From sequence record MN158206.1: a DNA stretch of 46,880 nt; one strand, 5' to 3'. Position numbers and translations under genes: made by a program. Position 1 is the first letter of the stretch. Every line of letters begins with the position of its first letter. The stretch is from Escherichia phage BEK2. Shown here piece after piece: positions 16,466 to 43,322 of this stretch. Below the pieces are notes generated by a model. That model saw only the letters and a program-made list of their open reading frames with translations, was not told the DNA's origin and ran no database searches.

Positions 16466-17018
16466 TATTAAGTTAGGCCTATCTTTAGGGCGTAAGTTTG
16501 GCAAGATTCACAAAATGGCAGTGAGCAGCGTTCCTGAAGCAATGCGAGCGCTTTGCTCACAAATTCCTGCTTTCAAGGAGTTCATGAACAGTCATGTTGG
16601 TCAAAACACAAGGTACGCCGTGTTCGTTGATGGTAAAAATGTGAATGAGCATCGAATCTCTGATTTTGGCGCCGTTCAGGAGATACGAATCTTACCAATC
16701 CCGCAAGGTCGTAAGTCTGGCGGCTTGTTTCAGACTATTTTAGGCGCCGCTCTTATCACGGTTGGCATCTTTACCGGGCAGATTTATCTTGTTGGCGCTG
16801 GTGTTTCTCTGGCTGCTGGCGGTATTGCTCAATTACTCTCGCCGCAAGCGACTGGATTAAAGACCCAGAACAACCAAACAAGCAACCGCGCATCATACGC
16901 ATTCGGCTCCGCAGTAAACACGGTGGCAGCTGGCTATCCGGTTTGCCTTCCATATGGCTATCGAACGGTTGGCGGCTCTGTGTTTAGTGCAGGCAGTTAT
17001 TCCGAAGACATTGCTTAA
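16446..17018 (+). CDS. tail assembly protein (lambda gpI-like)
   Basis: 'AMRALCSQIPAFKEF' and 'GRKSGGLFQTILGAAL' parallel lambda I 'AIRALATQLPAFRQK' / 'GAKSGGVFQIVLGAA'. Confidence 0.7.
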   Translation: MTQKLIDIKLGLSLGRKFGKIHKMAVSSVPEAMRALCSQIPAFKEFMNSHVGQNTRYAVFVDGKNVNEHRISDFGAVQEIRILPIPQGRKSGGLFQTILGAALITVGIFTGQIYLVGAGVSLAAGGIAQLLSPQATGLKTQNNQTSNRASYAFGSAVNTVAAGYPVCLPYGYRTVGGSVFSAGSYSEDIA

Positions 17019-17024
17019 ATATCA

Positions 17025-17047
17025 TACCCGCCTAGTGCGGGTTTTTT
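17025..17047 (+). terminator. intrinsic terminator
   Basis: acccgc-ctagt-gcgggt + T6. Confidence 0.65.
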
Positions 17048-17098
17048 ATTTAGTGTAGAATGGCACAAATGATCAAAACAAACATGAGGCTTTGTGAT

Positions 17099-20000
17099 AT
17101 GGCTGAAGATATTAAGATTTATGGTGCTAAGGGTGGTAGTCAGAAGCCGCATCAACCGGTGGAGCAGGAAGATAACCTCATTTCACTAAACAAGGTTAAG
17201 GTGTTGCTTGCTGTCGCTGACGGAGAGGTTGATTCAAACTTCTCAATGAAGGATTTATACCTTGCTGACGTTCCGGTGCAAAACCAGGATGGTAGCTACA
17301 ACTACGAAGGTGTTCGCGCTGAGTTCCGTGCTGGAACGCAGTATCAGGACTATATCGCTGGCCTTGATGGTGCAAACTCAGAGATTCAGGCATCAAGGGA
17401 AATCAAAAACGATACCCCGTACATCATTGCGGTTAACAATACTCAGCTATCGGCGATTCGTGTAAAACTATATTGGCCTCGACTGGTTAAGCAAGAAAGC
17501 AATGGAGACCTGAACGGAACAACTTGTGAGTACGCAATTGACCTGTCTGTTAATGGTGGAGCGTATCAGGAATACACTCGAGGAGTTGCTAACGGGAAGA
17601 CAACTACAGGTTACGACCGCAGCATTCGTGTAAACCTTCCGGCTGAATTTGATAGCGCATTGGTTCGCATCAGAAAGATTACGACAGATTCGACGAGTAG
17701 CACATTGGTTAACGGGATGCAGATTACAACCTATCAGGAAGTAATTGACGCTAAATTCCGCTATCCGCTTACAGCTCTTGTTTACGTTGAGTTTGGCTCT
17801 GACCTTTTTCCTAACGGTATCCCGACAATCTCTATCAAGAAGCGATGGAAGTTGATTCAGGTTCCTACAAACTATGACCCTGAAAGCAGAACTTATAGTG
17901 GCACATGGAATGGTATATTTAAAATGGCATGGTCAAATAACCCTGCGTGGGTTCTTTATGACTTAGTGACAAACCGCCGATATGGTCTTGATCAGAGAGA
18001 GCTTGGTGTAGAGATTGATAAGTGGGGTCTGTACGAAGCTGCGCAATTCTGTGACCAAATGGTTCCAGATGGAAAAGGCGGCATGGAGCCGCGCTACCTG
18101 TGCGATATGGTTGTGCAGAATAAAGTTGAGGCTTACACGCTAATTCGTGATATCTGTTCGATCTTCCGTGGCCTGACTTTCTATGATGGCGAAAAGATTG
18201 GTATCGTAGTTGATAAGCCTCGTAATCCATCTTACATCTTCACGAATGATAACGTTGTAAACGGATTGTTCAGCCGCACCTTTGCCAGTGATAAAAGCCT
18301 TTACACCACGGCAAACGTTCAGTTTGATGATGTTGAGAACAACTATCAGCAGGATATTGAACCAGTATTCGAATTAGAGGCAACTCGTCGTTTTGGATTT
18401 AACCCTGTAGATTTAACTGCGATTGGATGTACTCGCAGAAGTGAAGCAAACAGACGTGGCAGATGGCTACTGAAAACCAACCTGAGAAGCGAAACCATCA
18501 GCTTCACTACCGGGTTGGAAGGTATGATTCCGATGATTGGTGAGGTTATTGCGGTCAATGACGCGGCATGGTCGAGCAACTATCAGTTAAACCTTTCCGG
18601 TCGCATTGAATCAGTCCAGGGATTGCAGGTTTTTACCCCGTTTAAAGTTGACGCAGCGCCTGGCGACAGGATTCTTCTGAACAAGCCTGACGGAAATCCA
18701 GAAGCAAGAACTATTGCAAGCATTTCGGAAGATGGTAGGACGATTAACCTAAACACGGCGTTCAGCTTTGTAGCTCAGCCTGATACTGTGTTCGCAATTG
18801 ATAAGGATAATCTGGCACTTCAGCAGTATGTTGTGACCGGTATTCAAAAAGCAGATACTGATGGTAAGGACTCATTCCAGTATACGATTACTGCGGTAGA
18901 GTACGACCCTAACAAGTATGACGAGATTGACTACGGCGTTAACATTGCTGACCGCCCGACTTCAATTGTGGAACCTGACAGATTGTCGCCACCAGAAAAC
19001 CTGACCGTTTCAAGCTATAGTAAGGTTGTTCAGGGATTATCAGTTGAGACGATGGTAATTGGTTGGGATAAGGCGCCATACGCTAAAACTTACAATGTTC
19101 AGTGGAGGAAAGAGAACGGCAACTGGATTAACGTACCCAGAACAGCTAGCACAGAGGTTGATATCGAAGGTATTTACGCAGGAATCTATGACGTCAGGGT
19201 TCGCAGCGTATCAGATACTGAAAACGTTTCTGCCTGGTCTGACATTGTAACTGTTTCGCTAACTGGCAAGATTGGTCGACCATCTGCGCCTACGGTTATC
19301 ACTGCGTCAACTGATGAAGTATTTGGTATCCGTGTTAAATGGGGATTCCCTGAAGGCTCTGGCGATACTGCTTACACTGAACTTCAGCAGGTTCCAGATA
19401 ATGGTGATGGTACTTACAATCCTGATAGCGCCAGTCTGTTAACTTTGGTCCCGTATCCTCAGTATGAATACTGGCACACACCGATTCAACCAGGCAAGGT
19501 GATTTGGTATCGCGCAAGATTGATTGACAGAATCGGCAATACCTCTGATTGGTCTTATTTCGCTAGAGGCATGAGTACTGACGACGCCAGCATCATCAAC
19601 GATTATATCAAGGTTGATATTGAGGGTTCGGAAGGATTCAAATACCTCGAGCAGAATGCGATTCAAAAGAATCAGGACATTCAGAATCAAGCTGAGGCAA
19701 TTATCGAGAACGCATTGGCTAATGATGGTGATGTTCGTCGCATGACAAAGGAGAACGGCAAACGTAAGGCTGAATATGTTCAGGCAGTTAATCTCATAGC
19801 CGATGAAACTCAGGCGCGTGTAGAGGCTCTCACGCAGCTTAAAGCGCAGATAGATGATGAAATTGTTGGTCAGATTACAACAATTGAAACAGCGCTAGCT
19901 ACAGAGACTGAAGCCAGGGCAACAGCTGACACGGCTTTAACCGCAAGGATTGGTGATAACGAGGCGGCAATAAACCAGAAGCTAGACGCGTTCTCTAATG

Positions 20001-22460: not shown

Positions 22461-22503
22461 ATTATACTGCACAAAATTTATTGTTCTTTAGCAATTCGTG
22501 CTA
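22461..22503 (-). promoter_or_regulatory. composite early-type promoter (box + -10 TATAAT)
   Basis: box 22489-22503, perfect TATAAT (minus) at 22461-22466. Confidence 0.6.
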
Positions 22504-23172
22504 TTTCTTTTCCAGCAGCAGCTTGATGTCAATGCCGAGATTATTCTCAATCAATCCGGTCAGCGCATCATTCTTTTCTTTAAGAGCGAAGCATTGCGCT
22601 TCATACTTAAATCTTTCCTCCATCTCATTCGAGCGACTAGCCCAACACTGGCGAGCCTCACAAGCCAGCATATCGAGTTTTTCATCGGTATTCTTATCCA
22701 TGAGTAAGATCTCATTTATTCTTTGCTCTGCAACAATGCGCTGGCTCAGGTGTGCATTTTGCGCATTAGCCACACCAAGCATCATTCGAGCCTCTTTTAG
22801 CTCATCAATGCTTACCATCCGGCTGATTACTTCTGCTTGTTTTTTAACTAACGCCTCGAGCTCATGAAGTCGACGGATAACTCTGCGACGAAGAACTACG
22901 CTGTAGCCAGTGATTAGCGTTTCGGTGAGTTCCTTGTTGAGTAAAATCTCAGATGTATAGCCTCGATTATCCGTAAGTACTTGATAATCATCATGACCCA
23001 AATCTGGGGCATCGTTATAATGTAACAATTCATTGATCATTTCCTTTGTGTCGCGAACGACGTGATCATGACGCTTACCTGTCAATTCAGCAATTTCCTT
23101 CGTGCTCATCATGGTTTTTGGCTGTTCTTTGTACGCTTCAATTTTCATTTTAGTCTCTCTTATGCTTTTCAT
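22501..23172 (-). CDS. Rha-family (phage regulatory protein Rha) domain protein with coiled-coil C-terminus
   Basis: 'MSTKEIAELTGKRHDHVVRDTKEM' matches Rha N-terminal domain; start 23172/23148/23112 uncertain. Confidence 0.65.
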   Translation of the reverse strand: MKSIRETKMKIEAYKEQPKTMMSTKEIAELTGKRHDHVVRDTKEMINELLHYNDAPDLGHDDYQVLTDNRGYTSEILLNKELTETLITGYSVVLRRRVIRRLHELEALVKKQAEVISRMVSIDELKEARMMLGVANAQNAHLSQRIVAEQRINEILLMDKNTDEKLDMLACEARQCWASRSNEMEERFKYEAQCFALKEKNDALTGLIENNLGIDIKLLLEKK

Positions 23173-23252
23173 GGCTCAGATTTGAGCCATCGCTTGGTTT
23201 TGCTCTACCGATTTTCGGTAGACCAAGCAGCACCATTGCCACCATGCGACTA

Positions 23253-23295
23253 AATATACCTAAAGATAGTCAGTTGTCTTTAGCAATTAGTGCTA
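23253..23295 (-). promoter_or_regulatory. composite early-type promoter (box + -10 TATATT)
   Basis: box 23281-23295, -10 (minus) 23253-23258. Confidence 0.5.
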
Positions 23296-23780
23296 TTTAT
23301 CGCCAATTTCACCACAAATCACAGTTACACGTAACCGATGTAACTCGATGTATACAATCTCATTCGCGGAAAATGATATACGCGCCGTTACGCAAATTTA
23401 CGCAATAGTTACATTAAAATATCTATATATATCAACCTTTTACTATTATTATTATTATATATATTACTGTGTATATCATGTAACTACTGTTCTGGAGTGT
23501 TCCGGTTATAATTTTAATATCATGTGGATTTATACAGTATTGTGTGGCAGCCATACCAATGCACCCCCCGCAAGAAACGGTATACACGATATACACGATG
23601 GTTACATTGAGCTATATCTGGGCTGAGATGCCATTTTACGTAACAAGTTGCAATGCCTACACGGAATTACAAGTATTCACGCGTAAGTTTAAATCAACGA
23701 TTGGCAAAACCAATTGGACTGGCTACGGTACCGAATATATAGTTACCTCATCGAAAGCAAGCAACCAGAGAGATACAGAA
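23296..23780. repeat. divergent control region A: iterons + AT-rich microsatellite tract (candidate origin/operator region)
   Basis: GTTAC-AC-GTAAC inverted repeat 23324-23335, TTACGCAA x2 (23386-23404), tandem TATACACGA x2 (23581-23598), (TA)n/(TTA)n tract 23415-23490, shared block 23604-23646. Confidence 0.5.
23714..23743 (+). promoter_or_regulatory. rightward sigma70-like promoter of region A
   Basis: TTGGAC ... TATAGT (23738-23743) followed by leader 'cctcATCGAAAGCAAGCA'. Confidence 0.45.
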
Positions 23781-23975
23781 ATGACCTACTACATTATCAA
23801 AGAGAAAAACAACGCACTGTTCGGCGATTGCTACTTTGGAGGCGAGGCCGGTTACACCACCGATAAGAATGAGGCAGACCGATTCGATACCAAAGAAGAA
23901 GCCAGGGATGTGCTGACTGGTTACTTCACTGAAGAAGATTTGAAGTCTGTTAAAGTAGTTAAGGTCAAGGGGTGA
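23781..23975 (+). CDS. hypothetical protein
   Basis: 64 aa ORF (internal start of track ORF 23544) directly after promoter/leader. Confidence 0.45.
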   Translation: MTYYIIKEKNNALFGDCYFGGEAGYTTDKNEADRFDTKEEARDVLTGYFTEEDLKSVKVVKVKG

Positions 23976-29116: not shown

Positions 29117-29140
29117 CGTGTAAAGTCTCCTTTTGTAAAA

Positions 29141-29202: not shown

Positions 29203-30126
29203 TTAGCTATTCAATAAGTCACTTGCCTTATATATCTTCTTCCTGATGCCGCTCTTGAATGAGTATTCATCATTTGGTATTACCACGTCAATACACCTGT
29301 CATCCGCAACGCAAAGCAACTCTCTGTCAAGTTTGCACGCCACTCTCAGCTTTTGGTTTCTAAGCGCGTAAGCAACCATTTCCATGTTGTAACTGGAGTA
29401 GCAAACAAGCACACAGCGGTTGCCAGTAGCAATGTGAACACGATAGCCGTCAATGAGATTATCGACCAGATAAGCGAACTCACCATCCTTAAGGGAACCA
29501 ATAACAGCCACAGACTGGCGAGTGTAATCTTTTGCGGCATAACTAACATCTCCTTCTTCATTGATAAACATTACATTGCACATTTCTTCTGATATACCAT
29601 CACCATAAGCCATGAAGCAAGGTATTGCATGGATTAATTCACCTGATTTTGCTCTACCAACATCAAAGCCAAACTCGCTATAGATTCCCTCGTATATACT
29701 GAGTGGGGTTGATTCTACTCTTTCCGTCCTTCCCATTATCTCTAAGCATCTTTCGTGGTCAATTTGAGCGCCCATTTTGTAGAGCTGGGTTCTTGATGCT
29801 TGCTTGTTTGCCTTGTTGACAACCTCAACCGGGATAAGGTTTAGCCACTCACCGAGAACGTCGATACACTCACTGAATGACTCGCCTCGCAGCTTCTGGA
29901 CCCAGAGAATTCCATCCCCTGAGCCGCACTGGTTGCAGATAATGCCACCATCACCATCTTCGCTAACCTTGTTTGTCCATCTCGCGCGATCGTTTCCACC
30001 GCAATAGATGCATGGCTTGTGCTTCTTGGTCTGGAAAAACTTAGGATCTGCGCCGCAGATGTTTATAAGCGCCTTATCCCACAGTCCGCGCATTCTTGGT
30101 AGAACCTCTTTCTTATCGTAGTGCAT
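29203..30126 (-). CDS. DNA primase (zinc-ribbon + catalytic domain)
   Basis: 'PCIYCGGNDRARW...GGIICNQCGSGDGI' matches primase Zn-ribbon pattern. Confidence 0.65.
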   Translation of the reverse strand: MHYDKKEVLPRMRGLWDKALINICGADPKFFQTKKHKPCIYCGGNDRARWTNKVSEDGDGGIICNQCGSGDGILWVQKLRGESFSECIDVLGEWLNLIPVEVVNKANKQASRTQLYKMGAQIDHERCLEIMGRTERVESTPLSIYEGIYSEFGFDVGRAKSGELIHAIPCFMAYGDGISEEMCNVMFINEEGDVSYAAKDYTRQSVAVIGSLKDGEFAYLVDNLIDGYRVHIATGNRCVLVCYSSYNMEMVAYALRNQKLRVACKLDRELLCVADDRCIDVVIPNDEYSFKSGIRKKIYKASDLLNS

Positions 30127-30932: not shown

Positions 30933-30945
30933 TTCATTACCTCAG

Positions 30946-30988
30946 TAGCATTTTTTGTTAAAAGTCATTCTGATTTGATGGTAGTATT
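30946..30988 (+). promoter_or_regulatory. degenerate composite promoter (TAGCATTTTTTGTTA + -10 TAGTAT/AGTATT)
   Basis: box 30946-30960, -10 ~30982-30988 at 36-37 bp; precedes helicase. Confidence 0.4.
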
Positions 30989-31033
30989 GTACTCAATTAA
31001 ACGCTACAAGACAATTTTTATAGGAATTTAGAT

Positions 31034-34650: not shown

Positions 34651-35781
34651 ATGGCAACTGCAAAGATTAGCAACGAACAACTACGCGAAGAACTGGCAAG
34701 TGGCATGACCAACAAGGCAATCGCAGAGAAGTACGGAATGAACATTCGCAATGTTGAATTGCGTCGTAGTAAATTGGCTAAGAGCGGGGAATTGCACGGG
34801 AACCCAGGCATCAAGAAACTAGTTCCTGACGGTTATATGGTTAAAGGCACATCAACAATGATTGACGCGGAAGGTAACGAGAAGATCAGATGGGTTAAAA
34901 CTTCAATAGATAATGAGCGACTTGAGGTTTTAATGGAGCAAGCGCGTGAGGCTTTTTGCTCTGATTTGCCAAAGGCAGATTCGGTCACCCACTCAGGTAA
35001 TGAGGTAAATTCTGAATTAATGACTCTTTACCCGATTTTTGATATCCATATCGGCATGATGGCTCATCGACATGAGTCTGGTGAAAATTATGACACCAAT
35101 ACCGCAGAGAAATTAATGGAATCATATTTCGATCATGCAATTTCTGTATCACCATCATCAGAGAAGGCTGTGATTTTGGTTGGCGGTGATTTCCTTCACT
35201 CTGACGGACTGGAGGCTGTAACTCCAGCAAGTGGGCACTGCCTTGATCAAGATAGTCGATATGCCAAGTTAGTTTATGTGGCAATTCGCTCAATTCGCGG
35301 TGCGGTAGAGAAGATGCTTAAGAAACACAAGGAAGTCGAGATTCAAATCATAGAGGGAAATCATGACCAAAGTGGTATGATTTGGCTTCGTGCGGCAATG
35401 GCTGCATTTTATGAAAGCGAGAGTCGCGTGTTTGTTGATACCAGCCCGGCAATCATGCACAAAACACGATTTGGCTCAACACTACTTGGTTACACGCACG
35501 GTCACACGATGAAGAAAGCAGAAGGCAGGCTTGCAGCTATGGCAACTGATTACAGGAAAGATTTTGGTGAGTGTGAATTTGTTTATTGCCACTCCGGGCA
35601 TTTTCACCACGCAACTGTTACAGAGTGCACTCTTGGGATTGATGAGGTTCACCCAGCTCTGGCTAGCAAGGATGCATATGCCGCTCGAGGAGGGTGGCGA
35701 TCATATCGCCAAGCGGCTGCAATTGTTTACCACAAGAATTTTGGCGAGGTTGGTAGACACATTTATCGCCCAGGTATGTAA
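34651..35781 (+). CDS. calcineurin-like metallophosphoesterase with N-terminal HTH
   Basis: 'DIHIGMM', 'GGDFLHSDG', 'EGNHD', 'GHTH' phosphoesterase motifs; N-terminal 'MTNKAIAEKYGMNIRNVELRR'. Confidence 0.65.
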   Translation: MATAKISNEQLREELASGMTNKAIAEKYGMNIRNVELRRSKLAKSGELHGNPGIKKLVPDGYMVKGTSTMIDAEGNEKIRWVKTSIDNERLEVLMEQAREAFCSDLPKADSVTHSGNEVNSELMTLYPIFDIHIGMMAHRHESGENYDTNTAEKLMESYFDHAISVSPSSEKAVILVGGDFLHSDGLEAVTPASGHCLDQDSRYAKLVYVAIRSIRGAVEKMLKKHKEVEIQIIEGNHDQSGMIWLRAAMAAFYESESRVFVDTSPAIMHKTRFGSTLLGYTHGHTMKKAEGRLAAMATDYRKDFGECEFVYCHSGHFHHATVTECTLGIDEVHPALASKDAYAARGGWRSYRQAAAIVYHKNFGEVGRHIYRPGM

Positions 35782-41633: not shown

Positions 41634-41670
41634 TTTTGTGTCTCCGTGAGTTCTTCGTTTCGATGGAGTA

Positions 41671-41714
41671 ATAATAGCGAATCACACCCGATCGGTCATT
41701 AGCAAAAAGTGCTA
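41671..41714 (-). promoter_or_regulatory. composite early-type promoter (box TAGCACTTTTTGCTA + -10 TATTAT)
   Basis: box 41700-41714, -10 41671-41676, leader 'ctccATCGAAACGAAGAA'. Confidence 0.55.
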
Positions 41715-42300
41715 TTCGTTAGATTTATGGATTGTTGCAGATATTGCAATGATTCACATAATTATTGCACATACAGCAATATTGCTTCAGATGCAATGAT
41801 GTTTTTGATTGTTGCGAAAAGTGAAATGAAGTGGGGAGTGAGCGAATGAAAGATGGATGGACTACCATACAAGTTGATTTTGATTCTGGCTGGGCCATTT
41901 TCACGCCTACACGTAACGCCAGTAGCGCGATGTAAGCCAAGGCCAATCGTTACGTGAGTTACGCGCAGCTACGCCCGGACTTACACTATAAGTGCTTAAT
42001 ATATATATATATCTTCTTTCTATTATTATTATTAATATTAATATTATTGTATGTAAGTCGTGTAACGTGGGTCCTAGCGATATCTATATGTTTTTTCCTA
42101 TCAGAATACATTATTGCTATTTTATGTGGGATTTAGCCAGTATGGGGCCATTGCACTCATTTGCCTCGTTACACGCACGACACGAAACTACATTGAGCTA
42201 TAGCTGGGCTGGTGTGCCATTTCGCGTAACGACCCCCAAAAGTTACCAAAAATTACACTTGACTACATGTGTAAGTCGGGATATGATGGACTCAACTTAA
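41715..42300. repeat. divergent control region B: ATTGCA iteron array, GTTACG repeats, AT-rich tract, two copies of the shared block (candidate origin)
   Basis: (A/G)TTGC(A/T) about 7 copies 41730-41815; block copies about 41887-41920 and 42190-42232; (TA)n/(TTA)n tract 41995-42055. Confidence 0.5.
42259..42287 (+). promoter_or_regulatory. strong sigma70 promoter (rightward early)
   Basis: -35 TTGACT, 17-bp spacer, -10 TATGAT. Confidence 0.65.
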
Positions 42301-42318
42301 ACGAGAGGAGTGATAGAG

Positions 42319-42798
42319 ATGAACGAGAAGGTAACATTAGGCCAAGTGATTCGTGAGATGGTAAAGGCGGCGCTTAAGTCTGAGGATAAGCAGATCAGCG
42401 TGACACTCAACAAGATTGAGAGCCTTATTGGCGCAGAGGAGGGTGGTCTACATAAGCTTAAGAGCTCATACATCTATAATACAACGGCTCGCATGCCTGA
42501 GTTGAGAGATGCCGGACTGAAGGCGACCCACCATTATGATGAGGATGAGGGTGATAGTGAGTTTGGTGAAACCACTCTGGCTGGGGAAAAGAAGTTAGTT
42601 ATCAAGCTGATTCCTGGAGCTGCAAACATTGGAATCAGGAAGAAGACCAACGACGCGATCAAGGATGAGGCAATCAATGGGTTCAAGGCCAAGATTTCGA
42701 AGGTGATGCCAGACCTCTCTGAGTATGAGGGTGAAGCGCTTGCAGCCGCCATGAAGGCCATTAAGGATTACCGTTTAATTATTGAGGAGATTAAGTAA
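42319..42798 (+). CDS. hypothetical protein (first rightward early gene)
   Basis: ATG 42319 with GAGGAG RBS (track GTG 42310). Confidence 0.55.
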   Translation: MNEKVTLGQVIREMVKAALKSEDKQISVTLNKIESLIGAEEGGLHKLKSSYIYNTTARMPELRDAGLKATHHYDEDEGDSEFGETTLAGEKKLVIKLIPGAANIGIRKKTNDAIKDEAINGFKAKISKVMPDLSEYEGEALAAAMKAIKDYRLIIEEIK

Positions 42799-43322
42799 TG
42801 TTTGACTTTAACGAGGATAAACTGACAGAAGAGCAGGTTATGCAAGTAGCCATGGCAGATAGCCTTCCACCACTACGTGTTGCAATCAGCGCTAACGGGT
42901 ATCGACAGTCAACGGCGTTTTGGGGTTCGATTGATACCTCAGAGGTGTATAGTGGTGATGAGCTTGGTGTACTGATTAAAATCATCAGGAAAATGGGAGT
43001 TAACGGCAAAGGAGTTGTCGGCATTAGGTCTCTATACGAAGGTGCTCGCAAGGTTAAGCCCTTTGAGGGTAGCAATGGAATCATGGCGCGTATTAAGGAT
43101 GAGCTCATCCCAGCTCTAGAGGAAATTAATATCGCTTGCCTAATTGGAGATAAGATTTATGTCCACCCAGCTATCATTGATGAGTACTGGCAACCCAACT
43201 TCAAAACTTACGAAGGTGAGCACCCCAGTAGACTACCACACCACTTGCGATACAGTGACGATGAGATAATAAAGGCGATTCGGTTCTACTGGGAAGCTAA
43301 ATCACTGCTTAGCGGCGGATAG
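42798..43322 (+). CDS. truncated paralog of the 37883..39466 ATPase (N- and C-terminal domains only)
   Basis: 'MFDFNEDKLTEEQVMQVAMADSLPPLRVAISANGYRQS' and 'NGKGVVGIRSLYEGARKVKPFE...CLIGDKIYVHP' match both ends of the 527-aa protein. Confidence 0.6.
   Translation: MFDFNEDKLTEEQVMQVAMADSLPPLRVAISANGYRQSTAFWGSIDTSEVYSGDELGVLIKIIRKMGVNGKGVVGIRSLYEGARKVKPFEGSNGIMARIKDELIPALEEINIACLIGDKIYVHPAIIDEYWQPNFKTYEGEHPSRLPHHLRYSDDEIIKAIRFYWEAKSLLSGG

Follow-up and report, generated by a model that had tools for sequence, protein, structure and literature searches.

Phages SPP1 and P4 each carry, in one small genome, two related cis-acting elements kilobases apart (oriL and oriR in SPP1, ori and crr in P4), with the same initiator-binding repeats beside AT-rich DNA. 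SPP1 uses G38P as its initiator and has oriL inside a gene; in P4 the initiator is the alpha protein's C-terminal domain. In the pathogenicity islands of Staphylococcus aureus (SaPIs), Rep helicases bind penta- and hexanucleotide iterons through a C-terminal winged helix, and these iterons are oppositely directed around a central AT-rich region (PMC9371898). For the T1-like phages, papers report that no origin could be found (PMC11447400, PMC7718038), and the TLS authors sought lambda-like iteron repeats and reported none in the TLS genome (PMC11447400). Here, we describe a candidate for the origin of this family in a 46,880-nt stretch of DNA, hereafter the window, from Escherichia phage BEK2 (MN158206.1), a T1-like coliphage (Drexlerviridae, Braunvirinae). 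The candidate is a 163-bp non-coding core made of short repeats around an AT tract, located with its right arm upstream of the recombination genes (region A), and it has a paralog elsewhere in the same genome (region B).

T1 belongs to the seven classical T phages. Its relatives often contaminate laboratories and fermentations and are also candidates for phage therapy. Our search of the literature on the T1-like family found no published origin or transcription start site map, a passing mention in the 2004 T1 or 2006 Rtp genome papers being possible, and the T1 record has no origin feature annotated. The bounded core, the paralog, the lineage-specific repeat code and the duplex stability result are new here. 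Together they suggest that region A is the best candidate so far for the family origin. Whether the core with its right arm would in fact serve as a phage replication origin, and 41905-42290 as a second origin or cis-acting partner, we regard as evenly balanced.

Short phased and inverted repeats surround an AT tract

The element occupies the gap between two divergent gene sets, with a minus-strand Rha-like gene on one side and the plus-strand recombination operon on the other. An earlier reading of the letters alone (the sequence-only reading) had put the non-coding DNA at about 480 bp; it measures about 608-632 bp (23149/23173 to 23780), of which the GenBank annotation counts 222 bp (23559-23780) as coding. 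Within it lies a sharply bounded core (Table 1). The left repeat set has CGTAAC, TGTAAC and TGTATA at 23330, 23339 and 23349, and its start is overlapped by the inverted repeat GTTAC-AC-GTAAC (23324-23335), which the sequence-only reading had picked out. That inverted repeat is indeed present, but its left arm is not kept in most relatives, and the conserved unit is instead the tandem CGTAACCGA/TGTAACTCGA/TGTATACAAT. The invariant box that follows has counterparts in T1 (CATCCGACCGCAGGGAG) and in both copies of the element in TLS (ATCCGGCGTA).

The block of four phased sites contains the pair of TTACGCAA direct repeats (23388-23395 and 23398-23405), which had been placed 11 bp apart and are 10 bp apart from start to start, and also GTTACAT (23408-23414), the left inverted site. 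On the far side of the AT tract, ATGTAAC (23478-23484) is inverted relative to the GTTACAT at 23408, and a repeat search pairs the two sites over 12 nt with 92% complementarity at a distance of 63 nt. AT makes up 86% of the 63 nt that separate the inverted sites (23415-23477) and 85% of the 80-bp window from 23404. A length of 75 bp had been claimed for the (TA)n/(TTA)n tract; the tract is there, but that figure was generous. The tandem TATACACGA repeat was found as claimed, twice in succession (by TRF), and is an inverted copy of 23469-23482. It stands in the right arm next to GTTACATTGAGCTATATCTGGGCTGAGATGCCATTTTACGTAAC, a 44-nt block with GTTAC and GTAAC at its ends. The right arm is not common to the Rogue1-like phages.

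These words are far more frequent than expected. The 608-bp gap has nine copies of GTAAC/GTTAC, where 1.3 would be expected (Poisson P=1e-5), five of them in the core (P=3.5e-5), and TGTATA occurs six times in the gap (P=2e-7). An unbiased 6-mer screen gave CGTGTA, GTTACA and CGTAAC as the words with the top joint enrichment in region A and its paralog (P=8e-9 to 5e-7). Thus, the general features of iterons beside a DNA-unwinding element are present in the sequence: short phased repeats in non-coding DNA and an adjacent AT segment of low stability.

Table 1. Coordinates in the window of region A, its surroundings, its paralog and the candidate replication proteins (strand. for features without a strand).
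Feature	Position	Strand	Evidence or remark
Rha/anti-repressor-like DNA-binding protein, 215 aa (left flanking gene)	22501..23148	-	Pfam Phage_pRha; phrog_8235 anti-repressor; BEK3 annotation
Two inverted repeats in leader of leftward transcript	23171-23190, 23200-23226	.	repeat search and terminator-like scan
Leftward family-specific promoter unit: 21-nt direct repeat (core 23279-23296), 20 nt, -10-like TATATT (23258-23253)	23253..23296	-	
25-nt insert between direct repeat and core	23299..23323	.	alignment
Conserved non-coding core (163 bp), candidate origin proper	23326..23488	+	sharp homology boundaries
Left repeat set, tandem CGTAACCGA/TGTAACTCGA/TGTATACAAT, period 9-10 nt	23330..23358	+	TRF period 10; nearly invariant in 12 genomes
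Invariant box CATYCGCGGAAAAT	23361..23374	+	12-genome alignment
Four phased sites TACGC, TACGC, TACGC, TACAT	23379, 23389, 23399, 23410 (range 23379..23414)	+	spacing 10-11 bp
AT tract, 55 nt, candidate DNA-unwinding element	23414..23468	.	(TA)n 23424-23432, (ATT)4 23445-23456, (AT)4 23457-23464
Right repeat set GTGTATATC-ATGTAAC-TAC	23469..23487	+	invariant TGTATA and TGTAAC
Right arm: TATACACGA x2 (23581-23598) and block GTTACATTGAGCTATATCTGGGCTGAGATGCCATTTTACGTAAC (23601-23644)	23489..23700	+	kept in Braunvirinae; common to paralog
Rightward promoter TGGACT-N17-TATAGT with family start region TATAGTTAnnnCATCGAAA	23715..23756	+	promoter scan
First gene of rightward operon, 64-aa rtp46 homolog	23781..23975	+	true start ATG 23781
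Primase	29203-30126		
Cro-like regulator, 161 aa	30447-30932		same strand as primase, directly upstream of primase gene
DUF3987 helicase, 527 aa	37883-39466	-	candidate binder through predicted C-terminal winged helix
Paralog of whole element (region B)	41905..42290	+	67.6% identity over 404 nt; score 216 vs 43+-8 for shuffles
174-aa "headless" helicase paralog	42798-43322	+	N-terminal 70 residues and C-terminal winged-helix domain, no ATPase core
Direct-repeat sites (15)	504, 2649, 10502, 21741, 22487, 23279, 24945, 29140, 33441, 37526, 39956, 41327, 41698, 43319, 44852		

The core is conserved within mosaic flanks

A BLAST search with the gap found the core in 133 phage records at 78-98% identity, with at least 80% of the core covered in each. 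In the more distant Rogunavirinae (Rogue1, AHP24, Sd1, phiEB49, Sf12 and Jk06), homology begins and ends at exactly 23326 and 23488, and the core is 81% identical to that of Rogue1, compared with 67-77% for the neighboring genes. Across a 12-genome alignment the mean column identity of the core is 83%, and the repeats, TACGC included, are invariant while the spacers between them vary. Relatives differ by core indels of 1, 3 and 8 nt, and the spacing between the inverted sites ranges from 57 to 67 nt in 14 genomes. The pattern suggests purifying selection on a non-coding core, which we count in favor of an origin.

The window, which stands for the BEK3 lineage in our comparisons, is 99.98% identical over its full length to GenBank BEK3 (MN158207.1), with 7 mismatches and 2 gaps. 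One of the two indels is (ATT)4 versus (ATT)5 at 23445-23456, either microsatellite slippage or an assembly difference. In all, there are four ATT copies in the window, five in GenBank BEK3 and eight in the TR3 paralog. Such 3-nt changes between nearly identical genomes fit an unwinding element better than the spacer of a promoter. An IHF-like site in the tract, TATCAACCTTTTA (23430-23442), was rejected as a conserved feature: it is present in the Braunvirinae, but Rogue1-like phages have the palindrome CCTTATATAATAAGG in its place, and the paralog is without it.

BLAST found no match of the element in plasmids or in all complete E. coli genomes, and a search of bacterial genomes with the invariant left block gave a single match, a whole T1-like phage contig in a Nitratidesulfovibrio assembly. 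Thus, no satellite or plasmid appears to carry the element. That 46,669-bp contig (NZ_VSMK01000220.1, Nitratidesulfovibrio liaohensis), in which the core is complete (nhmmer E=2e-49), probably stems from a coliphage that contaminated the assembly. The element is also present in several records labelled as Campylobacter, Pseudomonas or Enterococcus phages.

The flanks are mosaic across T1-like phages, with Rha, a Dcm-like methylase, HNH and small open reading frames (ORFs) inserted on either side. Despite this, the core is intergenic and abuts the leftward promoter unit in every relative checked, and the unit adjoins the core in all 11 relatives whose left flank was included. Mosaic flanks and sharp homology boundaries would also mark a module-boundary linker, that is, a homologous-recombination junction for cassette exchange without biochemical function. 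We consider such a linker very unlikely, as it leaves the repeat phasing, the inverted sites, the second copy, the change of repeat with retained architecture and the duplex instability unexplained, and a functional cis-site would serve equally well as a recombination anchor.

The least stable DNA of the genome coincides with two copies of the element

We computed duplex stability with nearest-neighbor energies in 50-bp and 80-bp windows over the whole genome. The AT tract of region A is the second least stable segment at both sizes (z=5.3) and is among the two most AT-rich segments; region B is the least stable duplex segment of the genome (z=5.9). We then compared five lineages, BEK3, Rogue1, T1, TLS and Klebsiella phage GH-K3. 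In all five, the two least stable windows genome-wide are the recE-upstream site and a site near the genome ends (z=4.4-6.3).

Region B sits in the other large divergent gap (41634-42319), about 18 kb from region A, with an identical order of motifs. An ortholog profile detects it at nhmmer E=1.7e-13 and finds second copies in Rogue1 (E=1.8e-9), in TR3 (E=5.5e-18) and, weakly, in T1. The two copies within one lineage share AT-tract variants that differ between lineages, which points to gene conversion or to a common ligand.

The cor-recE gap of T1 cannot be aligned to region A by BLAST, yet its layout is alike: GTGTAACAG/TGTAACC/TGTTACA repeats, a CATCCG box, a 75-bp AT tract and GTGTAACAG twice. 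The flanking repeat depends on the lineage, being GTAAC in BEK3 and T1, GTTCAC/GTGAAC in TLS and GGTAAGAT/ATCTTACC in GH-K3, and in each of these lineages the repeat is inverted across the AT tract in both copies. Copy A of Rogue1 has GTAAC sites around the tract, and the most enriched words over both Rogue1 copies are of the ATACGC type. Gene order is rearranged in GH-K3, but one copy is still directly upstream of recE. A binder encoded by the phage would lead one to expect a repeat that differs from lineage to lineage. The GTTACA repeats may resemble OmpR sites, and TGTAAC-N6-TATACA may resemble a TyrR box; we set both resemblances aside, since lineages that share a host have different repeats, and this favors a phage-encoded binder. 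The TLS repeat GTTCAC also resembles what we take to be the P4 type I iteron, TGTTCACC.

Beside region B, at 41720-41810, lies a cluster of TTGCA/TGCAA that is probably a pac region, judging from its resemblances. It recalls the start of the T1 record, whose first 60 nt are rich in TTGCA and open a 2.8-kb terminal repeat; by BLAST, the final 94 nt of the Rogue1 record align (85%) to 41687-41780, and similar repeats are found at the ends of the GH-K3 record. One could propose that the whole element is a cis site for packaging or recombination, either an auxiliary pac or a priming site for RecE/Erf-dependent replication, the more so as region B adjoins this cluster, with its likeness to the T1 left end and its alignment to the Rogue1 right end, and region A is directly upstream of recombination genes. 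However, the terminase genes are 20 kb from region A, and the TTGCA cluster is absent there, so that any pac function can be put down to a different stretch of region B. We give this proposal even less credence than the linker.

Flanking promoters are clear of the repeats

A 21-nt direct repeat with the consensus aaATAGCACnnnTTGnTAAAA has been described for TLS, T1, Rtp and Rogue1, its role there being given as unknown (PMC11447400). Within the gap there is one copy, directly left of the core: 23279-23296 on the minus strand, upstream of the leftward Rha-like gene, matches aaATAGCACnnnTTGnTAAAA with 0 mismatches, a result that applies to the 18-21-nt piece only. In the window as a whole we found 15 copies of the direct repeat ATAGCACNNNTTGNTAAA, against 0.04 expected. 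It is separate from the iterons of the sequence-only reading, is present genome-wide and is constant in sequence where the origin-like repeats differ. Where both are found, the direct repeat lies 20 nt (five sites) or 21 nt (one site) upstream of the -10-like motif TATAGTTA, and so seems to form the upstream half of a composite promoter; this touches on the question that the TLS paper raised. The motif TATAGTTA followed by CATCGAAA occurs in nine copies. A promoter scan called AAGACA-N16-TATATT in the leftward unit. The copy of the direct repeat at 29140 is oriented against the neighboring genes.

On the right, the start-region motif TATAGTTAnnnCATCGAAA is present in nine copies, against 0.05 expected, one of them at 23738-23756, and there is a degenerate trace of the direct repeat upstream of this rightward promoter. 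The rightward promoter of region B is near-consensus (TTGACT-N17-TATGAT, 42260-42288).

Inside the core, the best conserved sigma-70 matches across the 12 genomes reach 9/12, on both strands of the AT tract. We rejected a strong conserved sigma-70 promoter there, since such a score is as expected for AT-rich DNA and (ATT)n varies in the would-be spacer. A sigma-70 promoter/operator control region is likewise not supported, with no conserved -35/-10 pair above 9/12 and the flanking promoters clear of the repeats. Transcription-primed origins are exemplified by the T7 primary origin and by T4 oriF and oriG; this type does not fit, as both recognizable promoters face away from the core and the tract holds only 9/12 matches.

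The main rival to an origin is a cluster of operators or enhancers, through which a phage regulator (e.g. the Cro-like 161-aa protein) would switch recE-erf-ssb in region A, small early genes in region B and/or the leftward promoters, with an AT tract that is UP-like, bendable or endowed with weak promoters. Each copy has a rightward operon downstream of it and adjoins a leftward promoter unit, and the element stays upstream of recE despite the different gene order in TLS and GH-K3, but the promoters stand about 45 bp to the left and 230-250 bp to the right of the core, and no conserved strong promoter overlaps the repeats. All lineages have a conserved Cro-like helix-turn-helix protein that varies most within the helix-turn-helix itself, as a specificity that tracks the repeat would lead one to expect; the repeats themselves, however, are 10-bp-phased pentamers and hexamers rather than palindromic operators of 14-20 bp. 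The recurrence of 9/12 matches on both strands of the tract, and the promoters that the annotators of EC3a, AHP24 and AHP42 predicted there, would suit such a cluster, yet (ATT)n slippage shifts spacers across the tract by 3 nt between near-identical genomes. Lambda OL and OR are a precedent for paired paralogous operator regions. On the other hand, the 13 other direct-repeat promoter units of the genome work without a cluster of this kind, and the two least stable duplex segments in five lineages would go unexplained. On balance, we think an operator cluster unlikely.

Annotated reading frames across the element are probably artefacts

GenBank annotates a 138-aa coding sequence (CDS) that enters the gap (QGH76802.1, 23559-23975; 143 aa elsewhere). 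We judge this extent to be too long, because conservation is limited to the final 64 codons and the frame upstream of them is closed in relatives. The 64-aa body is 51-98% identical across phages, while the in-frame extension upstream of this rtp46 homolog is open for only 27-297 nt, closing at 27-114 nt in five relatives (DTL, ES, JeanPiccard, ACG-M12 and Rogue1). The homolog is annotated as 64 aa in Rogue1, ACG-M12, ES and JeanPiccard, and the family-typical promoter falls inside the supposed coding extension. The 92-aa poly-Tyr ORF at 23348-23626, which the sequence-only reading had dismissed as a repeat artefact, was rejected as a gene here too: it crosses the microsatellite, where relatives have indels of 1 nt and 3 nt, and indels break its frame. 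Hypothetical proteins are annotated over non-coding elements in the window (23559-23780), in TR3 (16861-17142 and 34868-35125) and in AHP24 (2824-2982). Annotation artefacts are the likely source of the ORFs over the elements and of the sizes of the rtp46 homolog, which range from 64 to 143 aa between records, and correcting them would affect many database records.

A small non-coding RNA or small protein encoded in the region is the least probable of the explanations that we considered. The 138-aa CDS, the small ORFs over or beside the element in TR3, AHP24 and AHP42, and weak terminator-like hairpins might suggest one, but the ORF extension is broken, and the core carries the 1-, 3- and 8-nt indels. 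The only Rfam match, VrrA, lies outside the core and is a chance one, its 23.1 bits falling short of the gathering score of 50. For 12 aligned orthologs (188 columns), RNAalifold computed -10.7 kcal/mol, of which covariation contributed -0.06, and this amounts to no conserved RNA structure.

Candidate binders are a DUF3987 helicase and a Cro-like regulator

The same DUF3987 helicase is found in over 900 sequenced genomes, and its C-terminus is predicted to form a winged-helix domain. The 174-aa protein had been called a paralog of this 527-aa ATPase, and it is one, sharing the N-terminal 70 residues and the C-terminal winged-helix domain. It has about 300 homologs in metagenomes and is absent from T1, Rogue1 and TLS; it could act as a regulator or competitor at the repeat sites in the BEK3 lineage. 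Sequence searches of the PDB with the helicase and the 174-aa protein gave nothing significant. Notes to the T1 and Rogue1 records liken the primases of these phages to the primase portion of P4-type alpha proteins.

Weighing an origin

The sequence-only reading had taken iterons next to an unwinding-like element for an origin or operator cluster. Comparative data strengthen the structural part of that reading, because the repeats stay invariant between variable spacers, keep a phase of about 10 bp and have opposite orientations on the two sides of the AT tract, and because the arrangement recurs as a paralog and, with lineage-specific repeats, in four other lineages; the function would still be a candidate one. 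The paralog, the flanking family-specific promoters, the sharply conserved core and the 222 bp annotated as coding were all absent from it.

We rate one or two origins as the best explanation because phased and inverted iterons around the DNA that is easiest to melt, a repeat that changes with the lineage and a helicase with a predicted winged helix match the SaPI design. As in the SaPI ori, pentamers and hexamers (here of the GTAAC type) are inverted around AT-rich DNA, here a tract of 55 bp. Counted in the SaPI manner, which calls for at least two iterons per side, there are GTTACG (23387) and GTTACA (23408) on the left and, in the opposite direction on the right, TGTAAC (23479) with only a degenerate TGTATA (23470); iterons on both sides are clearer in T1, with GTGTAACAG twice on the right, and in GH-K3. 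The systems also differ. SaPI Rep is an AAA+ 3'-5' helicase, whereas DUF3987 is a 5'-3' helicase of a different family (PMC11724360), and T1-like phages have two paralogous copies per genome. The likeness to SPP1 and P4 is one of paired-element layout in a small genome and is a comparison of layout, not of sequence homology. With lambda-type and theta-plasmid origins the element shares phased direct repeats beside an AT-rich unwinding element, but lambda ori is within the initiator gene O and has four iterons of 18-19 bp, whereas the repeats here are 5-7 bp long and partly inverted.

On the model of self-loading helicase origins, we infer protein binding, melting, helicase loading and the start of replication at the element. 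A sequence-specific phage protein would bind the (T/C)GTAAC and TACGC repeats, which on the left keep a phase of about 10 bp and across the AT tract are inverted. Binding would bend and melt the (TA)n/(ATT)n tract, the DUF3987 helicase could then be loaded on both sides, and the phage primase would prime synthesis for extension by host DNA polymerase III. The binder may be the predicted winged-helix C-terminal domain of the helicase or the Cro-like regulator. In a wider proposal, which we rate as slightly less likely than not, T1-like phages would replicate from a pair of paralogous origins that evolve together, the first upstream of recE and the second beside the pac region or terminal redundancy. 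Each would have lineage-specific inverted pentamer or hexamer iterons around the least stable duplex and be fired by a split system: a P4-like primase, a DUF3987 helicase that loads itself and ends in a winged helix, and/or a Cro-like binder.

Several points weigh against an origin. All of the support for it is drawn from sequence. GC-skew minima fall at 23-24 kb and 41-42 kb, but they are not independent evidence, because they coincide with changes in transcription direction. The predicted winged-helix fold is generic, its top matches including kleisins and MarR, and the putative recognition helix is acidic. Covariation of the repeat with the helicase C-terminal domain or with the Cro-like helix-turn-helix gave no decision either way, with five lineages only. 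Unlike in lambda, P4 and SaPI, the element is 14 kb from the helicase gene and 6 kb from the primase gene, so that the adjacency seen in SaPI, whose ori is directly downstream of rep, is lacking; the paralog at 41905 lies 2.4 kb from the helicase gene, with other genes between. Both copies are directly upstream of rightward, putatively early operons, the place of a transcriptional control region. Finally, the RecE/Erf/SSB module of T1-like phages could allow replication that is largely recombination-dependent.

If true, the wider proposal would identify the missing origin of a classical T phage and define a new initiator-origin pairing; confirmation of an origin here would extend the iteron/unwinding-element class of origins to a classical phage family rather than establish a new kind of element. 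By analogy, the candidate also hints at a possible self-loading role for DUF3987 helicases. The open question of the origin becomes experimentally simple, with a bounded, family-conserved candidate whose repeat code varies with the lineage and which is present twice per genome. In addition, cis elements of three kinds can now be told apart within the gaps: promoter units found family-wide, a cluster that is probably pac, and the origin-like core.

Flanking genes and a further AT-rich gap

The Rha-like gene is a lineage-specific insert that separates the element from the cor-like lipoprotein operon, and it is missing here in Rtp and Rogue1. After it, on the minus strand, come a Dcm-like methylase and then the cor-type lipoprotein operon. 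The rightward operon runs from the 64-aa rtp46 homolog through exonuclease VIII and an Erf-type recombinase to SSB. The 25-nt insert to the left of the core is confined to BEK3, EC3a and TR3 and appears as an alignment gap in Rtp, the Rogue1-like phages, DTL and ACG-M12. Elsewhere in the window, the third most AT-rich 100-bp stretch is a short gap (30933-31033) that has the Cro-like regulator/primase operon on one side and, divergent from it, the gene for an SNF2-type helicase on the other; this gap coincides with a further turn in GC skew.

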